22,381 bases of DNA from Verrucomicrobiota bacterium (lineage in GTDB: Bacteria > Verrucomicrobiota > Verrucomicrobiia > Chthoniobacterales > UBA10450), in the NCBI GenBank assembly GCA_003219465.1, contig QHOX01000052.1:1-22381 (forward strand), written 5' to 3'. Positions 5,831 through 16,625 of this stretch are shown here, piece by piece. Every line of letters begins with the position of its first letter. Within the stretch, counting starts at the first letter, position 1. The position numbers were made by a program, and so were the translations under genes. Under the pieces are notes generated by a model. It did not search any database. It was given only the letters and a program-made list of their open reading frames with translations, and was not told the DNA's origin.

Positions 5831-7516
5831 TCAGGTGTATCTCAGCACTTCCTCAATCGTCGTGTCGCCCGCGAAGATGCTGCGCAAACCGTCCTGGCGC
5901 AGCGTGATCATTCCAAGCTCGATCGCCTTTTGCTTTACCATAACCGTTGGCGCACGCTCGTTGATCAATTCACGGATTGGGTCCGTGATTCTTAGCAGCT
6001 CGTAAATTCCTTTTCGTCCTTTGTAGCCGGTGTTGTTACAAGCGTCACAACCTTTGCCGTAGAAGAATTGTTTCTCGCCGATATCGCGGCGCGAGATGCC
6101 GAGTTCAGCCAGTAGAGAGTCGTTCGGCCGGTACGGTGCGCGGCAATGACCACAGATGCTACGCAAGAGCCGCTGACCAAGGATCGCTTCCAACGTTGAC
6201 GAAATAAGGAACGGCTCCACGCCCATATCGATTAAACGCGTAATCGCACCCGGCGCATCATTCGTATGCAGCGTGCTAAAGACCAGATGGCCCGTGAGCG
6301 ATGCCTGAATCGCAATCTGGGCCGTCTCGAGATCGCGCGTCTCACCAATCATGATGCGATCCGGATCCTGACGCAGGAAGTGCCGCAACACGCGCGCAAA
6401 GGTCAGGCCGATCGCTTCGTTGACCGGCACCTGCACGATGCCTTCCAAATCGTATTCGACCGGTTCCTCCGCAGTGATCAGCTTTGAATCAATCGTGTTG
6501 ACCTTGCGCAAACAGGAATAAAGGGTTGTTGTCTTTCCTGAGCCTGTCGGCCCGGTCGCGATGAAAATGCCATTCGGTCGCTCGATCATTTCGAGCAGAA
6601 AATTGTAGATGTAATCCGGCATCCCAAGCGCTTCGAGGTCCAGATTGACGATGCTGCGATCGAGCACGCGCAGCACGAGGCTTTCGCCGAATTGCGTCGG
6701 CAAGGTTGAAACTCGCAAATCGACATTGCGCCCCGCGATGCGCTTTTGAATGCGGCCATCCTGCGGCAGCCGTCTCTCGGCAATGTTCATGTTCGCCATG
6801 ACTTTCACGCGCGAAATCACCGGCAGCGCCAGATGCCGCGGGGGCGGCGACATTTCGTAAAGCGCGCCATCGACGCGGTAGCGGATTTTGAATTCGTTTT
6901 CGAACGGCTCGAAATGAATGTCGCTCGCGCGGTCCTGGATTGCCTGATAAAGAATCAGATCCACAAATCGAATGATCGGCGTTGCGTTCGCCTCCGCTTC
7001 AACCGCAGCTTCGCCGTCCATCTCGCGCAATTGCAGCGCTTCGCCTGCTTCGCCGAGCTGCTTGAGGACTTCCTCCATGCTCGTCGTGTCGGTGCCGTAA
7101 AATTGTTTAATTAGCTCCTCGATTTGCTCAGGCGGCGATACGACTATCTGAATGTCTTTGCCGAGCGCGAAACGGAGGTCCTCAGCGATATGCAGATCGA
7201 ACGGATCGACCAGCGCCACTCGCAGCGCGGTTTCGCTCATATCAACCGGCAGCGCGCCGTGCAACCGCGCCAGACCGCTGGGAACGAGACGTAAAATCTC
7301 TGGCGCAATTTCGTGCTGGCTCAGATCGATGAATTCAGTGCCAAGGCCATTGGCAATCGTTTCATAAAAGCTCGGCTCATCAATGAAGCCGCCATCGATC
7401 ATCGCCTGCGCGACGGTTTTTCCGTTCAACTCCACTTCGCTCAACACATCGTCTGCCTGCGCAGGCTCCAGTACGCGCTGCTCGACAAAAAATTCGGCGA
7501 GTTGCTTTTCAGTCAT
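5831..7516 (-). CDS. gspE: GspE/PilB-type secretion ATPase, copy 2 (operon-distal)
   Basis: N-terminal T2SE_N-like domain, Walker A GPTGSGKTTT, Asp box ITAEEPVEY, Walker B RIMIGETRD, His box TGHLVFSTLHTNDA, tetracysteine CGHC...CDAC. The track start is TTG 7531; the first ATG is 7516 (MTEKQLAEFF). Confidence 0.9.
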   Translation of the reverse strand: MTEKQLAEFFVEQRVLEPAQADDVLSEVELNGKTVAQAMIDGGFIDEPSFYETIANGLGTEFIDLSQHEIAPEILRLVPSGLARLHGALPVDMSETALRVALVDPFDLHIAEDLRFALGKDIQIVVSPPEQIEELIKQFYGTDTTSMEEVLKQLGEAGEALQLREMDGEAAVEAEANATPIIRFVDLILYQAIQDRASDIHFEPFENEFKIRYRVDGALYEMSPPPRHLALPVISRVKVMANMNIAERRLPQDGRIQKRIAGRNVDLRVSTLPTQFGESLVLRVLDRSIVNLDLEALGMPDYIYNFLLEMIERPNGIFIATGPTGSGKTTTLYSCLRKVNTIDSKLITAEEPVEYDLEGIVQVPVNEAIGLTFARVLRHFLRQDPDRIMIGETRDLETAQIAIQASLTGHLVFSTLHTNDAPGAITRLIDMGVEPFLISSTLEAILGQRLLRSICGHCRAPYRPNDSLLAELGISRRDIGEKQFFYGKGCDACNNTGYKGRKGIYELLRITDPIRELINERAPTVMVKQKAIELGMITLRQDGLRSIFAGDTTIEEVLRYT

Positions 7517-7555
7517 TTGAACGATGTACAATTCACGATTTACGATGCAACAGCC

Positions 7556-9259
7556 TCAGCTCACGTCTCCGACGGTGATCGAGATGATTTCATCGGCAGA
7601 TGTGAGACCGGCGAGTACCTTGCGCACTCCATCTTCGCGCAGGGTTCGCATGCCGAGTTCGCGTGCTTTTTGTCGCAGGATAAAAGTCGAAGTGCGTTTG
7701 TTGATCATGTGGCGCACTTCATCGTCGATCACAAAAATTTCAAATATGCCCATACGGCCTTTGTAGCCGATTTGCCGGCACAACTCGCAGCCGACCGGCC
7801 TCATCACCTGTGCGTCTGAGAGCTGGCCAGGCTCAATCTGGAGCGCGCGCAACTCGGTATCCGTGAGTTCGCTCGGTTGTTTGCAGTTGCTGCACAAACG
7901 ACGGACCAGCCTTTGCGCCATCACCGCGCGCACCGAAGACGCGACGAGAAACGGCTGCACGCCGAGATCAATCAAACGGGCGACAGCCGAAGGAGCGTCA
8001 TTCGTGTGCAGCGTACTGAAAACGAGATGGCCGGTGAGACTCGAGTTGGTGGAGATGCTTGCAGTTTCGAGATCGCGAATCTCGCCGATCATAATGATAT
8101 TCGGCGCCTGGCGCAGGATGGAACGCAACGCGGCCGGAAACGTCATACCAATCTCCGTATTCACCTGCACCTGATTGATCCCCGTCATCTGATACTCGAT
8201 CGGCTCCTCGACGGTGATGATTTTACGGTCGGGTTTATTGATGCAATTGAGACAAGCGTAAAGCGTGGTCGTTTTGCCGGAGCCGGTGGGCCCGGTCACC
8301 AGCAGAATGCCATCCGGCAATCTGAGCAGGCGCTCGAAGGTTTCCTGGTCGTCCGAAAAAAATCCAAGCTCTGGCAATCCAAGCTTCAAGCTTGATTTAT
8401 CGAGAATACGCAAAACCATGCTTTCGCCGTGATTGGTGGGCATGGTCGAGACACGAAGATCGACCGGCTTCTTTTTAATCCTTACCTGTATTCGGCCATC
8501 CTGCGGCAGACGTTTTTCCGCGATACTCATCGAGCCAGTCATGATCTTGAGCCGGCTGATAATGGCTGATTGCAGACGCTTTGGCGGCGACTGCATTTCC
8601 TGCAGCACGCCATCGATGCGGAATCGGACGCGAAATTTTTTGTCCATCGGTTCGAGGTGAATGTCGCTGGCGCCGGCACGGTGCGCTTCGATCAGTAACA
8701 TCGACACAAGCCGGACAATCGGCGCGTCCGCTTCATCAATTGGGGTCGCTTCTGTGCCATCGCCAATTTCCAATCCAAGATCGATTTCCTCGCCAAGTTG
8801 CTTTTGCAGGACGTCCGCGGCTTCATCGGCCGTGCCGTAGTATTTGATCAACGCTTCGCGAATTTTTTTCGGACTCGTGCAAACCAGTTCCAGCTCGCGT
8901 TGCAGGAGAAAGCCAAGGCTGTCGATCGTGTCGATGTCGAGCGGGTTGCCCACTGCGACCACTAGCCCGCTCTCGCCAAATGCGACCGGGATCACTTTGA
9001 ACCGCCGCGCGTCTTCTCCTCGAATTTCATTGATGACCTGTGGCGGAATGATCATGGTGGAGATGTCGATCCAATCCATGTGCGCCTGCGCAGCGAGCGT
9101 GCGCGAGACGTCGACCTCGGACAAACTTCCGTCGTTGATCAGAACGTCGAGCACGCCAGGCTCGCCGTTCAGACGTGAGCGTGCGCCGTCGATTTGTTTG
9201 CGGGTGAGGAGTCCTCCGTCTTGGAGAACTCCGAGCACGTAGTCTTCGTTATATTGCAC
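7556..9259 (-). CDS. gspE: GspE/PilB-type secretion ATPase, copy 1 (operon-proximal)
   Basis: N-terminal T2SE_N-like domain, Walker A GPTGSGKTTT, Asp box ITVEEPIEY, Walker B IIMIGEIRD, His box TGHLVFSTLHTNDA, tetracysteine CSNC...CELC. The start is GTG at 9259; there is no in-frame ATG near the 5' end. Confidence 0.9.
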   Translation of the reverse strand: MQYNEDYVLGVLQDGGLLTRKQIDGARSRLNGEPGVLDVLINDGSLSEVDVSRTLAAQAHMDWIDISTMIIPPQVINEIRGEDARRFKVIPVAFGESGLVVAVGNPLDIDTIDSLGFLLQRELELVCTSPKKIREALIKYYGTADEAADVLQKQLGEEIDLGLEIGDGTEATPIDEADAPIVRLVSMLLIEAHRAGASDIHLEPMDKKFRVRFRIDGVLQEMQSPPKRLQSAIISRLKIMTGSMSIAEKRLPQDGRIQVRIKKKPVDLRVSTMPTNHGESMVLRILDKSSLKLGLPELGFFSDDQETFERLLRLPDGILLVTGPTGSGKTTTLYACLNCINKPDRKIITVEEPIEYQMTGINQVQVNTEIGMTFPAALRSILRQAPNIIMIGEIRDLETASISTNSSLTGHLVFSTLHTNDAPSAVARLIDLGVQPFLVASSVRAVMAQRLVRRLCSNCKQPSELTDTELRALQIEPGQLSDAQVMRPVGCELCRQIGYKGRMGIFEIFVIDDEVRHMINKRTSTFILRQKARELGMRTLREDGVRKVLAGLTSADEIISITVGDVS

Positions 9260-9630
9260 CTGGGGAAAAACGCTGCGCCCAGTGTAGCGTAAACTGGCTT
9301 TATTTCCAGCAGTCGCGATTTCGGCACTATGAACGTACGTTCAAACCTGCCTGAACTGGAGATCCTCCGCCAAACTGCCATCCAAATTTATCTCGCGGTT
9401 GTGGTGATCACTTTGCATGACTCCGGAGCTTAATCTGGTGCGCGAACCGTCGCGACTGAACTGGTAAACTGCGAGGCAAAATTCCGATTCACGGCACATG
9501 AGAATCTTTTCGCGTTCTGGGACAGGATCCTTGGAACCACCCTAATTGCGCGGAGGTTTAGGTTAGCCCTAATCGGGCTTGAGTTGCTAAACCCATGTCC
9601 TTACAATCGGCCGAAGAAAAGGAGCAAGAG

Positions 9631-10083
9631 ATGAAAAGCTACATTCGACGAATCGCGGCGGCTCTTTCGGTTGGCATCCTTGTGCTACCGGCACTTACGC
9701 CGTCCGCGCAACCCCAAAAACCTCCGTGGTGGTATTATGCCTGCTTTCAAGACTTCATTCCGCAAGCCCCCGGCAATATACCCGACCCAGGCACTAAAGG
9801 ATGGGCCCAATATCAAAGCTGTTTAGAACAACAGTTAAGCGTGTCGCCTCAACAGAGTGCCAAGATCGTGCCCATTCTCGCCAATGAAGGACGAAAGGTA
9901 ATAGCGATCAGAAACAACAATTTGCTTTCGAACGCTCAAAAAATTCAAGAGGTTAAGACAGTGCAGCAACAGTCCGATCCGAAGTTGAAGGCGATTCTCT
10001 CATCTGCTCAATACGACAAGCTACAAGTCGGCCGCAAACAGGCCGTCCGATGGGCCACTCAGCCAAGACTCGGTTGGCAGTAA
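9631..10083 (+). CDS. Hypothetical secreted protein (weak Spy/CpxP LTXXQ-like flavour)
   Basis: ATG 9631 is preceded by AAGGAG (9618-9623). The N-terminus looks like a signal peptide ([28 protein letters not shown]). Two L-S-x-x-Q-type segments are present ([21 protein letters not shown]). I recognise no firm homology. Confidence 0.5.
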
Positions 10084-10215: not shown

Positions 10216-10289
10216 CGGAGCCTACGGGGCTCGAACCCGCAACCTCCGCCGTGACAGGGCGGCGCTCTAACCAATTGAGCTAAGGCTCC
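10216..10289 (-). tRNA. tRNA-Asp (anticodon GTC)
   Basis: The complement folds by hand into a 74-nt cloverleaf. Acceptor GGAGCCT/AGGCTCC; D arm GCTC-AATTGGTTA-GAGC; anticodon arm CCGCC-CTGTCAC-GGCGG; variable loop AGGTT; T arm GCGGG-TTCGAGC-CCCGT; discriminator G. CCA is not encoded. Confidence 0.95.
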
Positions 10290-10581: not shown

Positions 10582-10609
10582 TTGCGAACACGCCTGATGA
10601 CGGTATAAT
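10582..10609 (+). promoter_or_regulatory. Candidate sigma70-type promoter for mpa
   Basis: TTGCGA (10582-10587), a 16-nt spacer, then TATAAT (10604-10609), about 33 nt upstream of the mpa ATG 10642. This is a sequence match only. Confidence 0.35.
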
Positions 10610-10641
10610 TAACTCGGTTCGGCGGATTGACCCAAACCATA

Positions 10642-12324
10642 ATGAGCGACGAGCGCAGTGAGGGATTGCAGGGTGCGGAAGGAGAGTCGGGTCCGGAAAA
10701 TCTCCTCGATTCATTCGATCAAGTAATCGGGTCGTTACCGCCGGGCGATCCGGTTCGGCGTGAATTGTTGCAGCTGCGTCCGCAGATTCTCGATCAGCAG
10801 GAAACGATGGTCGAGGCGCGCCGGCTGATTGAGAAGCTGGAGGAAGTCGTCAAAAAAGTGACTTCACCTGCGAACCGCATCGGCACCTTTCTCGGCGCCA
10901 CTTCGAAGGAGACCGCGCACATCGTGGTTGGCGGCGCCGATTATTATTGCAACGTCGATCCGCGCATACCGCTGTCGAGATTGAAAAAAGGCACGCGCGT
11001 TTTGGTCAACGAAGCGTTCGTTATTGTCGGTGATCTGGGATTCGAGACGGCGGGTCCGGTCACGAAAATCACCGAGGTCATAGGCAAGGACCGATTGCGC
11101 GTGGGTTCGGAACACGGGTTGCATTCGATGGTGCTGCAGCGCTCCTCAGAACTTGCTCACTCCAACTTGAAATCGGGCGACGAAGTCCGCGTTGATTCTA
11201 ATTACCGCATGGCGTTGGAGATGCTCTCGAGCACTAAATCGGACGAATACTACCTCGACACTGTGCCGGAGTTGCCGTGGGAGAAAGTCGGAGGACAGGA
11301 AGCCGCACTACAAGCAATCAAAGACGCAATCGAACTGCCGCTCTTGCATCCTGATCTTTTCAAGAAATTTCAGCACGCTACGCCCAAAGGCTTTCTGCTT
11401 TACGGACCGCCCGGTTGCGGCAAGACGCTGATTGGTAAGGCGACTGCATTCAATTTGACCAAGCAACTCGGCGCAAAAACTGGTAGTGAAATGCGCGAAT
11501 ATTTCATGCACGTGAAAGGTCCCGAGATCCTCAACATGTGGGTAGGCGAATCGGAACGCATGGTGCGCGAGATTTTTGCAACCGCACGTGAGAAACGGAA
11601 GGAAGGTTTCATGCCATTCCTTTTCATCGATGAAGCCGAATCGATCCTCGGCACCCGACGCGCATCGCGTTACTCCAATATTCTTTCAACACTGGTGCCG
11701 ATGTTCTGTTCGGAGATGGACGGCATCGATTCGCTCAACGACGTCGTCATTATTCTCGCCTCGAACCGGGCGGATCTGATCGATCCCGCAATTTTGCGTC
11801 CGGGTCGCATCGACCGAAAGATCAAAGTCAATCGCCCGGATAAGGACGGCACGCGTGAAATTTATCGGATCTATCTCACCGACAATCTGCCATACGACGG
11901 CGTGCTTGCCAAGGAGGCTGATGGAATCGGCGCGTCCATCGAACGCTTGATCGAGCGTTTTGTTGACTGGCAATTTGCCCGCCGCGATGAAAATAAATTT
12001 TTGGAAGTGACCCTTCGCAGCGGTCGCAAAGAAACGCTTTACCGCAGCGATCTTATCAGCGGCGCAATTATCGCCTCGATCGTGGAGCGCGCGAAGGCGA
12101 TCGCGATTAAACGGGCCATCGGAACTCAACAGGAGGAAGGAGTTCGGGAAACGGACCTTCAACTCGCCTTTAACGCAGAGTACGCGGAGAACGACATTTT
12201 CCCGGCCACGGACATTACCGAGGATTGGCTCAAGCTGATCGATTACGATCCGGAAAACGTCGTGAAAATTTCACCGGTTAGGCCAGTGTCGGATGCGCGC
12301 GTGCGTACAACGTCGGTGATCTAA
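10642..12324 (+). CDS. mpa: Proteasome-associated AAA+ ATPase of the Mpa/ARC family
   Basis: Acidic N-terminal tail, predicted coiled coil (RRELLQLRPQILDQQETMVEARRLIEKLEEVVKKV), OB-like middle region. The AAA+ module has Walker A GPPGCGKT (11404-11427), Walker B FLFIDEAES and SNRADLIDPAILRPGRIDRKIKV. By eye it is collinear with M. tuberculosis Mpa, including the family blocks VKGPEILN.WVGESER, NKFLEVT and AEND.FP...EDW near the C-terminus. I prefer ATG 10642 over the track's TTG 10627. Confidence 0.9.
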   Translation: MSDERSEGLQGAEGESGPENLLDSFDQVIGSLPPGDPVRRELLQLRPQILDQQETMVEARRLIEKLEEVVKKVTSPANRIGTFLGATSKETAHIVVGGADYYCNVDPRIPLSRLKKGTRVLVNEAFVIVGDLGFETAGPVTKITEVIGKDRLRVGSEHGLHSMVLQRSSELAHSNLKSGDEVRVDSNYRMALEMLSSTKSDEYYLDTVPELPWEKVGGQEAALQAIKDAIELPLLHPDLFKKFQHATPKGFLLYGPPGCGKTLIGKATAFNLTKQLGAKTGSEMREYFMHVKGPEILNMWVGESERMVREIFATAREKRKEGFMPFLFIDEAESILGTRRASRYSNILSTLVPMFCSEMDGIDSLNDVVIILASNRADLIDPAILRPGRIDRKIKVNRPDKDGTREIYRIYLTDNLPYDGVLAKEADGIGASIERLIERFVDWQFARRDENKFLEVTLRSGRKETLYRSDLISGAIIASIVERAKAIAIKRAIGTQQEEGVRETDLQLAFNAEYAENDIFPATDITEDWLKLIDYDPENVVKISPVRPVSDARVRTTSVI

Positions 12325-12353
12325 TGCGGCTACAATGACGGTGATTCCAGATT

Positions 12354-12376
12354 GTAGGGGAAGCTGACAGCTTCCC
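12354..12376 (+). repeat. REP-like element (GTAG + 8-bp stem) in the mpa-dop spacer
   Basis: ATTGTAGGG context, as at 3766. GTAG 12354-12357, stem GGGAAGCT 12358-12365 / AGCTTCCC 12369-12376, loop GAC. Confidence 0.7.
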
Positions 12377-12498
12377 ACGAATATGGCCGAACCCCCCGCG
12401 GTTGCCAGCGGGAGAACTCGATTATGTACTTTGTGACCATCTGTGTGAAAGATCGACGGTGAAGGGTATTGGAGCACGATGAGGAGAGCAGGGATCAA

Positions 12499-14022
12499 AT
12501 GAGACGCGTCTTTGGGCTGGAGACGGAGTACGGCATCACGCTGTCTGGTGCGGAGACGGTGGATGTTGTCGCTGAATCGATCGAGTTGGTGCGCCGTTAT
12601 ACCGATCACGGCGCGCTGATGAAATGGGACTATGATCTTGAAGATCCGCACCTCGACGCTCGGGGATTTCGCGCCCGGGAATTACTTCAAGACACCGACG
12701 AATCGGCTTACTATGAGATCGACAAACGTCGCCCGCTTAGCTTCGAGGAAATAAAAAGCGACCTTGTACTTTCAAACGGCGCGCGGTTCTACAACGATCA
12801 CGCGCACCCGGAATATTCGACGCCAGAATGCACGACTCTCCAGCAAATTGTCGCGCAGGATAAAGCCGGCGAACGCATCCTTGCAGAATGCGCACGCCGC
12901 CGGAACCAAAAATTACCATCCGGTTACGAGGTCCGTCTTTACAAGAACAACACCGATTTTGCCGGCCACAGCTATGGTTGCCACGACAATTTCCTGATGA
13001 TCCGCGACATTCCGTGGGATCGGATCGTTTCCGGCATCCTGCCGTTTCTTGTCACGCGCCAGATTTTTTCCGGAGCAGGCAAAATGGGGATTGAAGCCGA
13101 AAGCACCCAAGGAGATCCGGGAATTTACCAGATTTCGCAACGCGCCGATTTTTTCAGCGTGGTGGTCAGCATTGACACTATGAATCGACGTCCGCTGATC
13201 AACACACGCGATGAGCCGCATGTGGACGCGAGCCGGTACCGGCGGTTTCACGTGATCCTCGGCGATTCCAACATGAGCGAATGGGCCACCGCGATGAAGA
13301 TTGGGACCACCGCGCTGGTCCTGGATCTGATCGAGCGTGGCGAAGCGCCACAGTTGGAAATTGCGCAACCGGTAGACGCCAACAAATCAATCAGTCGCGA
13401 TCAAACTTACGATTGGATTATCGAACTGAAGGATGGCCGCAAAATTTCTGCAATTGATGTGCAACGCATTTATTTGCAGGCTGCAAGCAAGTTGTGGCGC
13501 GATCCGCCAGACGAGGAGCACGCATGGGTTTTGTCGGAGTGGGAAAATGTTCTGAACGATCTTGAACGCGACCCGATGTCAACACGGGATCGCGTCGATT
13601 GGTCGGCCAAAAAATTCCTGCTGGATGCCTTGCAACAAGACGAGAAACTTTCATGGAGTGATCCCTGGCTGCAATCGATCGACCTCGAGTATCACAATCT
13701 CGATCTCGACCGCGGATTGTACTACGAATTGTTGCGCAACGGTATTATGCGCCGCATCACCAGCGAGGACGAAATCAAGCTCGCGATCTTTAATCCGCCG
13801 GAAACCACTCGCGCGTTTTTCCGCGGCCGCGCGGTGGCGCGTTTCAACGACCAGATCTCGTCCATTCAGTGGGACGAAATCGTTTTTTCAAACGGCGCCT
13901 ACTCTCACCGCGTCGCTCTACCTGAAGCCGCGATGGATGCGCGGCTCGACGCACTCAATCGCGCCGCGCGCAACGGCAAGGATTTTCCGGAGTTCATGAG
14001 CGCCATCGCGCATATCGGTTGA
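12499..14022 (+). CDS. Pup-ligase superfamily enzyme (Dop/PafA family), Dop-like by motif (deamidase/depupylase-like)
   Basis: N-terminus MRRVFGLETEYGI, then NGARFYNDHAHPEYSTPEC, YKNNTDFAGHSYGCHDNFLM, LPFLVTRQIFSGAGK, INTRDEPHVDASRYRRFHVILGDSNMSEWATAMKIGTTALVLDLIE and PPETTRAFFRG. It is collinear with actinobacterial Dop/PafA from memory. I prefer ATG 12499, which has AGGGA 5 nt upstream; the track ORF begins at TTG 12469. Confidence 0.9.
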   Translation: MRRVFGLETEYGITLSGAETVDVVAESIELVRRYTDHGALMKWDYDLEDPHLDARGFRARELLQDTDESAYYEIDKRRPLSFEEIKSDLVLSNGARFYNDHAHPEYSTPECTTLQQIVAQDKAGERILAECARRRNQKLPSGYEVRLYKNNTDFAGHSYGCHDNFLMIRDIPWDRIVSGILPFLVTRQIFSGAGKMGIEAESTQGDPGIYQISQRADFFSVVVSIDTMNRRPLINTRDEPHVDASRYRRFHVILGDSNMSEWATAMKIGTTALVLDLIERGEAPQLEIAQPVDANKSISRDQTYDWIIELKDGRKISAIDVQRIYLQAASKLWRDPPDEEHAWVLSEWENVLNDLERDPMSTRDRVDWSAKKFLLDALQQDEKLSWSDPWLQSIDLEYHNLDLDRGLYYELLRNGIMRRITSEDEIKLAIFNPPETTRAFFRGRAVARFNDQISSIQWDEIVFSNGAYSHRVALPEAAMDARLDALNRAARNGKDFPEFMSAIAHIG

Positions 14023-14063: not shown

Positions 14064-15656
<1,593 letters not shown>

Positions 15657-16055: not shown

Positions 16056-16625
16056 ATGATCGATCCCGATCTTTTACTTCAAGGATACCGGCTTGGTGTT
16101 TTCCCGATGGCGATGAACGACGACTCGATCGAGTGGTTTTCGCCGGACCCCCGCGCCGTCCTGCCGCTGGAGGATTTTCATGTGCCACATGCATTACGCC
16201 GTCTTGTGCGCAGGAAACCCTTTGAAGTTACCATCGACAAGGCGTTTTCGGCAGTGATCCAAGCGTGCGCTGCACGCGAAAATACATGGATCAATCGCGA
16301 CATCATCGACAGCTACACGCGATTACATGAACTCGGTCACGCTCATTCAGTCGAGGCTTGGAAAGAGAACGGTCTCGTCGGGGGCCTTTACGGTGTCGCA
16401 GTCGGCGGCGCGTTCTTTGGCGAATCAATGTTTCATCGCGTGACCGATGCGTCCAAGATTGCGCTCGTAACGCTCGTGGAACATTTGCGGGCCCGCAAGT
16501 TCGTCCTGCTCGATACGCAATGGCTCACGCCCCATCTGGAACAGTTTGGCGGGATCCAAATTTCGCGGAGCCATTATCTGCGCCTGTTGCGGACAGCAGT
16601 CGATTTGCCGCGGAGATTTCTGTAG
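16056..16625 (+). CDS. aat: Leucyl/phenylalanyl-tRNA--protein transferase (L/F-transferase)
   Basis: By eye it is collinear with E. coli Aat: GVFPM, WFSPDPRAVLP, YTRLHELGHAHSVEAW, LVGGLYGVAVGGAFFGESMF, ASKIAL. Confidence 0.9.
   Translation: MIDPDLLLQGYRLGVFPMAMNDDSIEWFSPDPRAVLPLEDFHVPHALRRLVRRKPFEVTIDKAFSAVIQACAARENTWINRDIIDSYTRLHELGHAHSVEAWKENGLVGGLYGVAVGGAFFGESMFHRVTDASKIALVTLVEHLRARKFVLLDTQWLTPHLEQFGGIQISRSHYLRLLRTAVDLPRRFL

Follow-up and report, generated by a model that had tools for sequence, protein, structure and literature searches.

A 22,381-nt stretch of DNA from a Verrucomicrobiota bacterium (contig QHOX01000052.1 of assembly GCA_003219465.1; the whole stretch is hereafter the window) carries two neighbouring genes, mpa and dop, which very probably make up one half of a dispersed Pup/UBact-proteasome system in a Udaeobacter-like member of the Chthoniobacterales. 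The usual cluster of such systems, mpa-dop-UBact-prcB-prcA-pafA, would have been broken up in the Chthoniobacterales lineage, leaving mpa-dop between tRNA-Asp and guaA and placing the modifier gene UBact and the 20S core genes prcB and prcA at another site, flanked by genes for a LysM protein and a cell-wall amidase. An initial annotation, made from the sequence alone, had called the first gene Mpa/ARC-type and the second a member of the Dop/PafA superfamily, and on both counts Pfam, NCBIfam and the solved structures agree. The two genes are as follows:

10642-12324, plus strand: mpa/arc, UBact-type proteasomal AAA+ ATPase of 560 amino acids (aa) (Pfam, TIGR03689, Mycobacterium tuberculosis Mpa structures)
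12499-14022, plus strand: dop, predicted UBact-type deamidase/depupylase of 507 aa (Pup_ligase, TIGR03688, Dop structures, discriminating positions)

The Mpa protein begins with a coiled coil, followed by a double OB domain, an AAA module and a C-terminal domain that ends ...SVI. Pfam recognises Prot_ATP_ID_OB_N (PF17758, 77 bits), Prot_ATP_ID_OB_C (PF16450, 44 bits) and AAA (PF00004, 105 bits), and tandem OB domains ahead of one AAA+ module are the domain order of Mpa/ARC. The top NCBIfam model is the TIGR03689 proteasome ATPase (461.7 bits, spanning model positions 22-509 of 512), and the top solved relatives are the Mpa structures of M. tuberculosis (345 bits, residues 52-544 aligned), with which the intact Walker A (GPPGCGKT), Walker B (FIDEAES), aromatic pore loop (MWVGESE) and Arg finger (PGRIDRK) motifs align.

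For its part, Dop matches the Pfam family Pup_ligase (PF03136) with 550 bits, and scores 486.3 bits on the NCBIfam model for Dop (TIGR03688) versus 393.5 bits on that for PafA (TIGR03686). Solved Dop structures are matched with 412 bits versus 267 bits for PafA, residues 1-464 being aligned to the Dop of Acidothermus; at the level of sequence, the matches of the window genes to solved Dop and Mpa structures are unambiguous. The enzyme possesses the GhExE motif (G6-E8-E10), the catalytic Asp100 within 'YNDHAHPEYSTPE' and a Dop loop at approximately residues 40-88, and G6, E8, E10 and D100 are invariant in a sequence alignment. The positions that separate Dop from PafA have been tabulated by Hecht et al. 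(PMC7947786, Table 1), who also found that 20 substitutions together with removal of the Dop loop make Dop a ligase. We mapped these discriminating positions on an alignment that comprised 13 Dops of the clade, 36 of other Gram-negative bacteria and 34 of actinobacteria, together with 42 PafAs. At S27, V31, V84, H95, A96, S101, T102, P103 and F208 (Acidothermus numbering) the clade Dops agree with the majority of the 36 Gram-negative Dops and differ from PafA, and every discriminating position carries either the Dop state or a state typical of canonical UBact-type Dops. The Dop loop is kept, the catalytic Asp is followed by His-Ala with nothing inserted behind it, Ser-Thr-Pro follows PEY, and the alpha-loop is of the Dop type. 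The window enzyme thus appears clearly Dop-like rather than PafA-like, and its discriminating residues give no sign of a lone enzyme drifting to ligase function. By analogy with characterized homologues it is predicted to act as both deamidase and depupylase.

No other component of the system lies alongside this pair. None of the open reading frames (ORFs) of the whole 22-kb window ends in a Pup/UBact-like C-terminal tail, and a jackhmmer/hidden Markov model (HMM) search of the window with the UBact, PrcB, PrcA and PafA of Nitrospira matched only Mpa and Dop. Genes for a modifier, the 20S core and PafA are thus truly absent in cis, and the ORF-tail scan and HMM searches bear out the initial annotation, which had noted the lack of a modifier, 20S genes and a second ligase paralogue here. 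Two of the readings offered in that annotation take the window at face value. In one, the pair is a stand-alone, proteasome-independent module whose genome has lost UBact and the 20S core and puts Mpa and Dop to other use, the corynebacteria, which pupylate without a 20S core, serving as a precedent; that the window contains nothing more of the system speaks for it. In the other, which draws on the same lack of a modifier in cis, the pair serves some modifier or substrate not yet recognised. Both can be weighed against what relatives of the window contain.

A Dop 100% identical to that of the window is encoded on a 4.3-kb soil contig of the ENA, and more than 100 soil metagenome clusters (clustered at 90% identity) are 88-95% identical to it. 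Organism labels among these 88-100% relatives were two, namely Chthoniobacterales and 'Tectomicrobia', the latter probably mis-binned. The nearest loci in the GTDB species set are assigned to 'Candidatus Udaeobacter sp.' (Dop 84%, Mpa 89%), and further loci in that set, down to 62% Dop identity, derive from metagenome-assembled genomes (MAGs) of Chthoniobacterales, Chthoniobacteraceae, Chthoniobacter and Verrucomicrobiota. The order of the flanks (GspE-like ATPases, mpa-dop, convergent guaA, aat, secA) is found again on a contig of 1.37 Mb (L001), and is confined to the Udaeobacter-like subclade. Judged by these relatives, the source of the window is a soil Udaeobacter-like member of the Chthoniobacterales.

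The ORFs of 82 loci were then classified by searches seeded with a canonical Nitrospiraceae cluster (L023; mpa, dop, UBact, prcB, prcA, pafA). Thirteen loci are comparable members of the Chthoniobacterales/Udaeobacter clade (L001, L003-L011, L013, L018 and the window; Dop 62-89% identical to that of the window). In this comparison of orthologous neighbourhoods, which the initial annotation had suggested, UBact, prcB, prcA and pafA are missing within 10 kb of dop in all 13. Most clade loci have mpa preceding dop; two (L005 and L010) have dop without mpa upstream, and in another (L013) mpa is 4 kb from dop. Since the pairing of mpa with dop is not fixed and the absence in cis is clade-wide, the genes of the system appear to be generally dispersed in the Chthoniobacterales. 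In contrast, in nearly every locus from other phyla with enough downstream sequence (Poribacteria, Nitrospirota, Verrucomicrobiales, Bipolaricaulia, Nitrospinaceae, Armatimonadota and Actinomycetota), dop is directly followed by UBact/Pup-prcB-prcA, mostly with pafA as well.

The complementary genes were found at a separate locus. The C-terminal part of UBact is extremely conserved (…LLKRMRKVDPxQAxRYRQRTG[EQ]), and JGI metagenome contigs were scanned with its C-terminal 36 residues. Among the 83 UBact loci listed, three of which are canonical loci fetched separately, 31 have dop directly upstream, 31 are too short, and 21 possess at least 2 kb of upstream sequence and no dop. One distinct UBact subtype, which we call PxPW (MPERTQKP..PAPW.PKQGDG.GP.SPDVSKPDTKDLLKRMRKVDPNQSKRYRQRTG[QE]), accounts for 16 of these 21 and for most of the short contigs. 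It is followed by prcB-prcA only; no pafA comes after it at these loci, including four with approximately 10 kb of downstream sequence. The GC content of PxPW loci (0.535-0.66) falls in the same range as that of the clade mpa-dop loci (0.545-0.633). A protein search with PxPW UBact gave 1585 matches, of which those with an organism label read 'UBact [Candidatus Udaeobacter sp.]' or 'UBact [Chthoniobacterales bacterium]', and the ten large PxPW clusters bear only the labels Verrucomicrobiota, Chthoniobacterales and Chthoniobacteraceae. An earlier UBact search had returned only Gly-run-type UBacts of other Verrucomicrobia, in canonical clusters.

In two MAGs labelled Udaeobacter or Chthoniobacterales (loci L166 and L167) the gene order is LysM-UBact-PrcB-PrcA-Amidase_3-PG_binding, and the LysM-UBact-PrcB-PrcA-amidase synteny is repeated in approximately 30 metagenome contigs. 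The clade UBact passes the curated model NF033388 (84.6 bits; cut-off 35). The PrcB proteins of the two MAGs score 175 and 168 bits on TIGR03690 and keep the Thr1 motif, and bacterial 20S models are the best matches of both PrcB and PrcA. A C-terminal Gln is present in 103 of 120 PxPW UBacts (~86%), which argues that Dop has a deamidase role; in the actinobacterial system such a Gln has to be converted by Dop ahead of ligation. In addition, all bacterial proteasome components have been reported in Candidatus Udaeobacter copiosus (Brewer et al.).

The C-terminus of Mpa deserves comment. It lacks the actinobacterial GQYL, which at first was taken as a hint against docking to a 20S core; this was dropped, as the Mpas of Nitrospira, Poribacteria and Nitrospinae that are encoded beside prcBA are without GQYL too, their ends being VI, II or IV. 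The terminal VI of the clade conforms to these UBact-type endings and is invariant in 10 clade sequences, the residues before it being variable, so the docking-type dipeptide appears to be under constraint and a docking role is predicted. Across the loci surveyed for this feature (L001-L063), actinobacterial Mpas end in GQYL and all UBact-type Mpas examined in a hydrophobic dipeptide (VI, II, IV or VV), in most cases with a small or polar residue before it. This dipeptide may be a distinct 20S-docking motif of UBact-type systems.

Taken together, these data make the stand-alone module very unlikely. UBact-prcBA loci are abundant under the same lineage labels down to the genus Udaeobacter, the full bacterial proteasome is reported for Candidatus U. 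copiosus, the docking-type dipeptide at the end of Mpa appears constrained, and Dop is 88-95% conserved over more than 100 clusters with its active site intact. The idea of a self-contained two-gene module is not supported, and the corynebacterial analogy fails, in that the clade keeps both prcAB and UBact elsewhere. Even more improbable, to the point of being almost negligible, is the unrecognised modifier or substrate: the clade does possess a genuine UBact, recognised by its curated model, and Dop and Mpa have canonical features that call for no other partner. What is supported, at the level of the clade, is a third reading of the initial annotation, that of a split locus. A canonical cluster elsewhere in the same genome had been named as the finding that would make this an ordinary split locus; what came to light is UBact-prcB-prcA elsewhere in relatives, rather than a full pup-prcBA-pafA cluster in the window's own genome.

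Several points nevertheless weigh against the dispersed system as the explanation. The score of Mpa (461.7 bits) lies below the TIGR03689 equivalog cut-off of 504.75, that of Dop (486.3 bits) marginally misses the 492.3 required by TIGR03688, and PrcA and PrcB of the clade are likewise under their NCBIfam equivalog cut-offs. We read the shortfall of Mpa as probable divergence of the UBact-type lineage and not as membership of another family, and canonical UBact-type Dop representatives of other lineages, which score 418-484, also fall under the TIGR03688 cut-off. The link between mpa-dop and UBact-prcBA is one of clade and label: both loci were not seen in one assembly or contig, and in a single look-up the clade Dop of a Chthoniobacterales-labelled NCBI MAG (P0023) was in a different assembly from those holding L166 and L167. 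The genome and metagenome scans were each made among 600 stretches listed, and are samples rather than exhaustive surveys. Finally, there is the matter of PafA. Within 10 kb of either type of clade locus no pafA was found, a result that covers the flanks and not whole genomes, and a search of 1.84 billion representative proteins yielded no clade-assignable PafA among the Pup-ligase representatives checked.

Among the loop-less Pup-ligase representatives considered as a clade PafA, P0149 belongs to Gemmatimonadota, P0259 to an archaeon of the Aenigmarchaeota and P0270 to Chthonomonas, and most of the others are without an organism label. Four apparent paralogues nearest the clade Dop (P0181, P0143, P0171 and P0128) seem to be the same gene with frameshifts, and the loop-less P0167 is part of an unrelated composite locus, described below. 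One could thus suppose that the lineage runs its UBact-proteasome pathway with a single Pup-ligase-family enzyme of the Dop type and no PafA, in which case Dop would both deamidate and ligate, or an unrelated enzyme would conjugate UBact, or UBact would serve unconjugated as a non-covalent degradation adaptor. Besides the empty flanks and the lack of an assignable representative, this supposition can draw on Hecht et al. (PMC7947786), who report that sporadic non-actinobacterial genomes, including Verrucomicrobia, carry 'one or both' of Dop and PafA, and on their conversion of Dop into a ligase by 20 substitutions. However, at no discriminating position can the clade Dop be told from canonical UBact-type Dops that co-occur with PafA, the 86% of UBacts that end in Gln imply a deamidation that is sensible only ahead of ligation, the scattering of genes seen at L005, L010 and L013 makes an unlinked pafA unsurprising, and the PafA searches spanned locus flanks and representatives rather than whole genomes. 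We therefore consider the PafA-less version unlikely. The likeliest situation is that pafA is present but unlinked elsewhere in the clade genomes, because the genes of the system are scattered in this clade, the Dop residues are canonical and UBact ends in Gln.

How the dispersed system would operate can be proposed from its actinobacterial homologues. Provided that the genome of the window carries the second locus, as its relatives suggest, Dop would deamidate the C-terminal Gln of UBact to Glu, and a ligase, expected to be PafA though not located, would couple UBact-Glu to lysines of the substrate. The Mpa hexamer would bind UBact via its N-terminal coiled coil, unfold the tagged protein and feed it into the PrcAB 20S core, docking via its conserved C-terminal tail, and Dop would later strip UBact from the tagged lysines and so recycle it. 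All of these biochemical activities are predictions by analogy.

The window pair is a member of the known Pup/UBact-proteasome system of Gram-negative phyla, and the differences lie in gene order and in a lineage-specific UBact N-terminus. UBact-proteasome loci have reportedly been described by Lehmann and co-workers in 2017 in Gram-negative phyla including Nitrospirota, Verrucomicrobiota, Armatimonadota, Nitrospinota and others. The clade resembles these in that the window Mpa and Dop are ~50-57% identical to those of Poribacteria, Nitrospira and Verrucomicrobiales, in sharing the Dop loop, the 'YNDHAHPEY' catalytic motif and the hydrophobic end dipeptide of Mpa, and in possessing a UBact that ends RYRQRTG[QE] alongside PrcB/PrcA. 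It differs in having the single mpa-dop-UBact-prcB-prcA-pafA cluster split into at least two loci with pafA unlinked or absent, and in a UBact N-terminus of the PxPW type in place of a Gly run. With the actinobacterial Pup-proteasome (in M. tuberculosis mpa, dop-pup-prcB-prcA and pafA) the clade has in common the folds and catalytic residues, as seen in the matches to solved structures, and a Gln-ended modifier that needs deamidation. In mycobacteria, too, mpa and pafA are not contiguous with dop-pup-prcBA. On the other hand, the clade modifier ends RTG[QE] versus GG[QE] in Pup, the clade Mpa ends ...VI versus GQYL, the window proteins score just under the equivalog cut-offs, and the clade dop stands apart from the modifier gene. 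Pupylation in Corynebacterium and Bifidobacterium is different again, as these truly lack prcAB yet keep pup and pafA, whereas the clade keeps prcAB and UBact elsewhere.

The remaining features that delimit and connect the two genes in the window are these:

10216-10289, minus strand: tRNA-Asp(GTC), upstream boundary, outside the module (ARAGORN)
10582-10609, plus strand: candidate sigma-70-like promoter, TTGCGA-16-TATAAT, 33 nt 5' of the mpa ATG (10 of 12 in a consensus scan)
12325-12498, plus strand: mpa-dop spacer of 174 nt, with neither coding potential nor a terminator-like site
14064-15656, minus strand: guaA (GMP synthase), convergent, downstream boundary, outside the module (NF000848, 798 bits)

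The upstream tRNA-Asp, the convergent guaA 41 nt downstream of dop and the 174-nt spacer holding short ORFs only are all exactly where the initial annotation had placed them, and guaA is likewise convergent to dop in L001, L002, L008 and L170. The promoter candidate is a pattern match only, as the region contains 3 such sites versus 1.9 expected by chance. None of the short ORFs in the 174 nt of spacer is meaningful, no terminator-like site was found there in our scan, and mpa and dop are probably co-transcribed. The spacer does contain a perfect 8-bp hairpin at 12358-12376 on the plus strand (GGGAAGCU-GAC-AGCUUCCC) with no T run after it, and its length differs among relatives; a structured RNA was considered and rejected, the fold of the whole spacer being no stabler than that of shuffles (z = 0.17).

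Further out in the window, a 162-aa ORF (9595-10083, plus strand) has a signal-peptide-like N-terminus and no Pfam or NCBIfam match, and at the equivalent position L001 has a 143-aa ORF, also without domain matches. The window ORF ends ...GWQ and was considered as a modifier, but was discarded as it looks secreted. Beyond guaA, 2 kb 3' of dop, lies aat (16056-16625, plus strand), which encodes the leucyl/phenylalanyl-tRNA-protein transferase of the N-degron pathway; the order dop-guaA-aat is kept in L001, L002 and L008. The closeness of two functions in protein-degradation tagging is probably a coincidence of synteny. On the other side, at 5831-7531 and 7556-9259 (both minus strand), are tandem paralogues of a GspE/PilB-type secretion or pilus ATPase (566 and 567 aa), each with an MshEN domain and with scores just under the GspE and PilB equivalog cut-offs. 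This pair is kept in L001, where it adjoins a T2SSF gene.

The searches also brought up other variant loci. At a composite locus (L168:8052-20909, ENA ERZ27247709 k141_1097351, and L169, JGI Ga0315282_10000337), an Mpa-like ATPase and the loop-less Pup-ligase-family protein P0167 are followed by a 77-aa acidic protein that ends ...EQPIGE (a Pup-like G-E tail) and a second Pup_ligase fused to HEAT repeats, and then by Prok-RING, ThiF (E1-like), UQ_con (E2-like), YukD-type ubiquitin-like, JAB deubiquitinase-like and CHAT protease genes, so that Pup-type and ubiquitin-type conjugation sets apparently stand side by side. In Chthonomonas sp. (L171:10001-12286, GCA_016788425.1) and in L172, a ribosomal-protein/rpoA operon is directly followed by a short Dop-like Pup_ligase (465 aa), UBact and a single Proteasome-family gene. 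Within 10 kb there is neither mpa nor pafA nor a gene for the second 20S subunit, so that Armatimonadota offer a further variant of the reduced or dispersed kind. A UBact of the Gly-run type, with prcB-prcA-pafA behind it, is found in L092, L094 and L114 (UBact near position 10000) and in L148 (UBact near 1000, with less than 1 kb upstream). The first three have no dop or mpa in the approximately 10 kb upstream, and presumably represent a different split of the cluster in another verrucomicrobial lineage. Lastly, one canonical verrucomicrobial cluster (L085:11677-14996, GCA_044230345.1) has three extra genes between prcA and pafA, namely a 220-aa ORF without domains, an AAA+/TPR protein and a TPR protein.

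These findings carry a caution, in that a Pup/UBact gene pair seemingly without partners can belong to a dispersed system of which it is one half. The genes of the UBact-proteasome are spread over at least two conserved loci in a bacterial lineage that ranks with the most abundant in soil, and the rule of Iyer et al. 2008 (PMC2588565), by which a PafA-family gene is always found next to Pup, has a clade-wide exception. Should it prove true that the lineage is without PafA, the transition from Dop to ligase that Hecht et al. (PMC7947786) engineered could be studied there in a natural setting.

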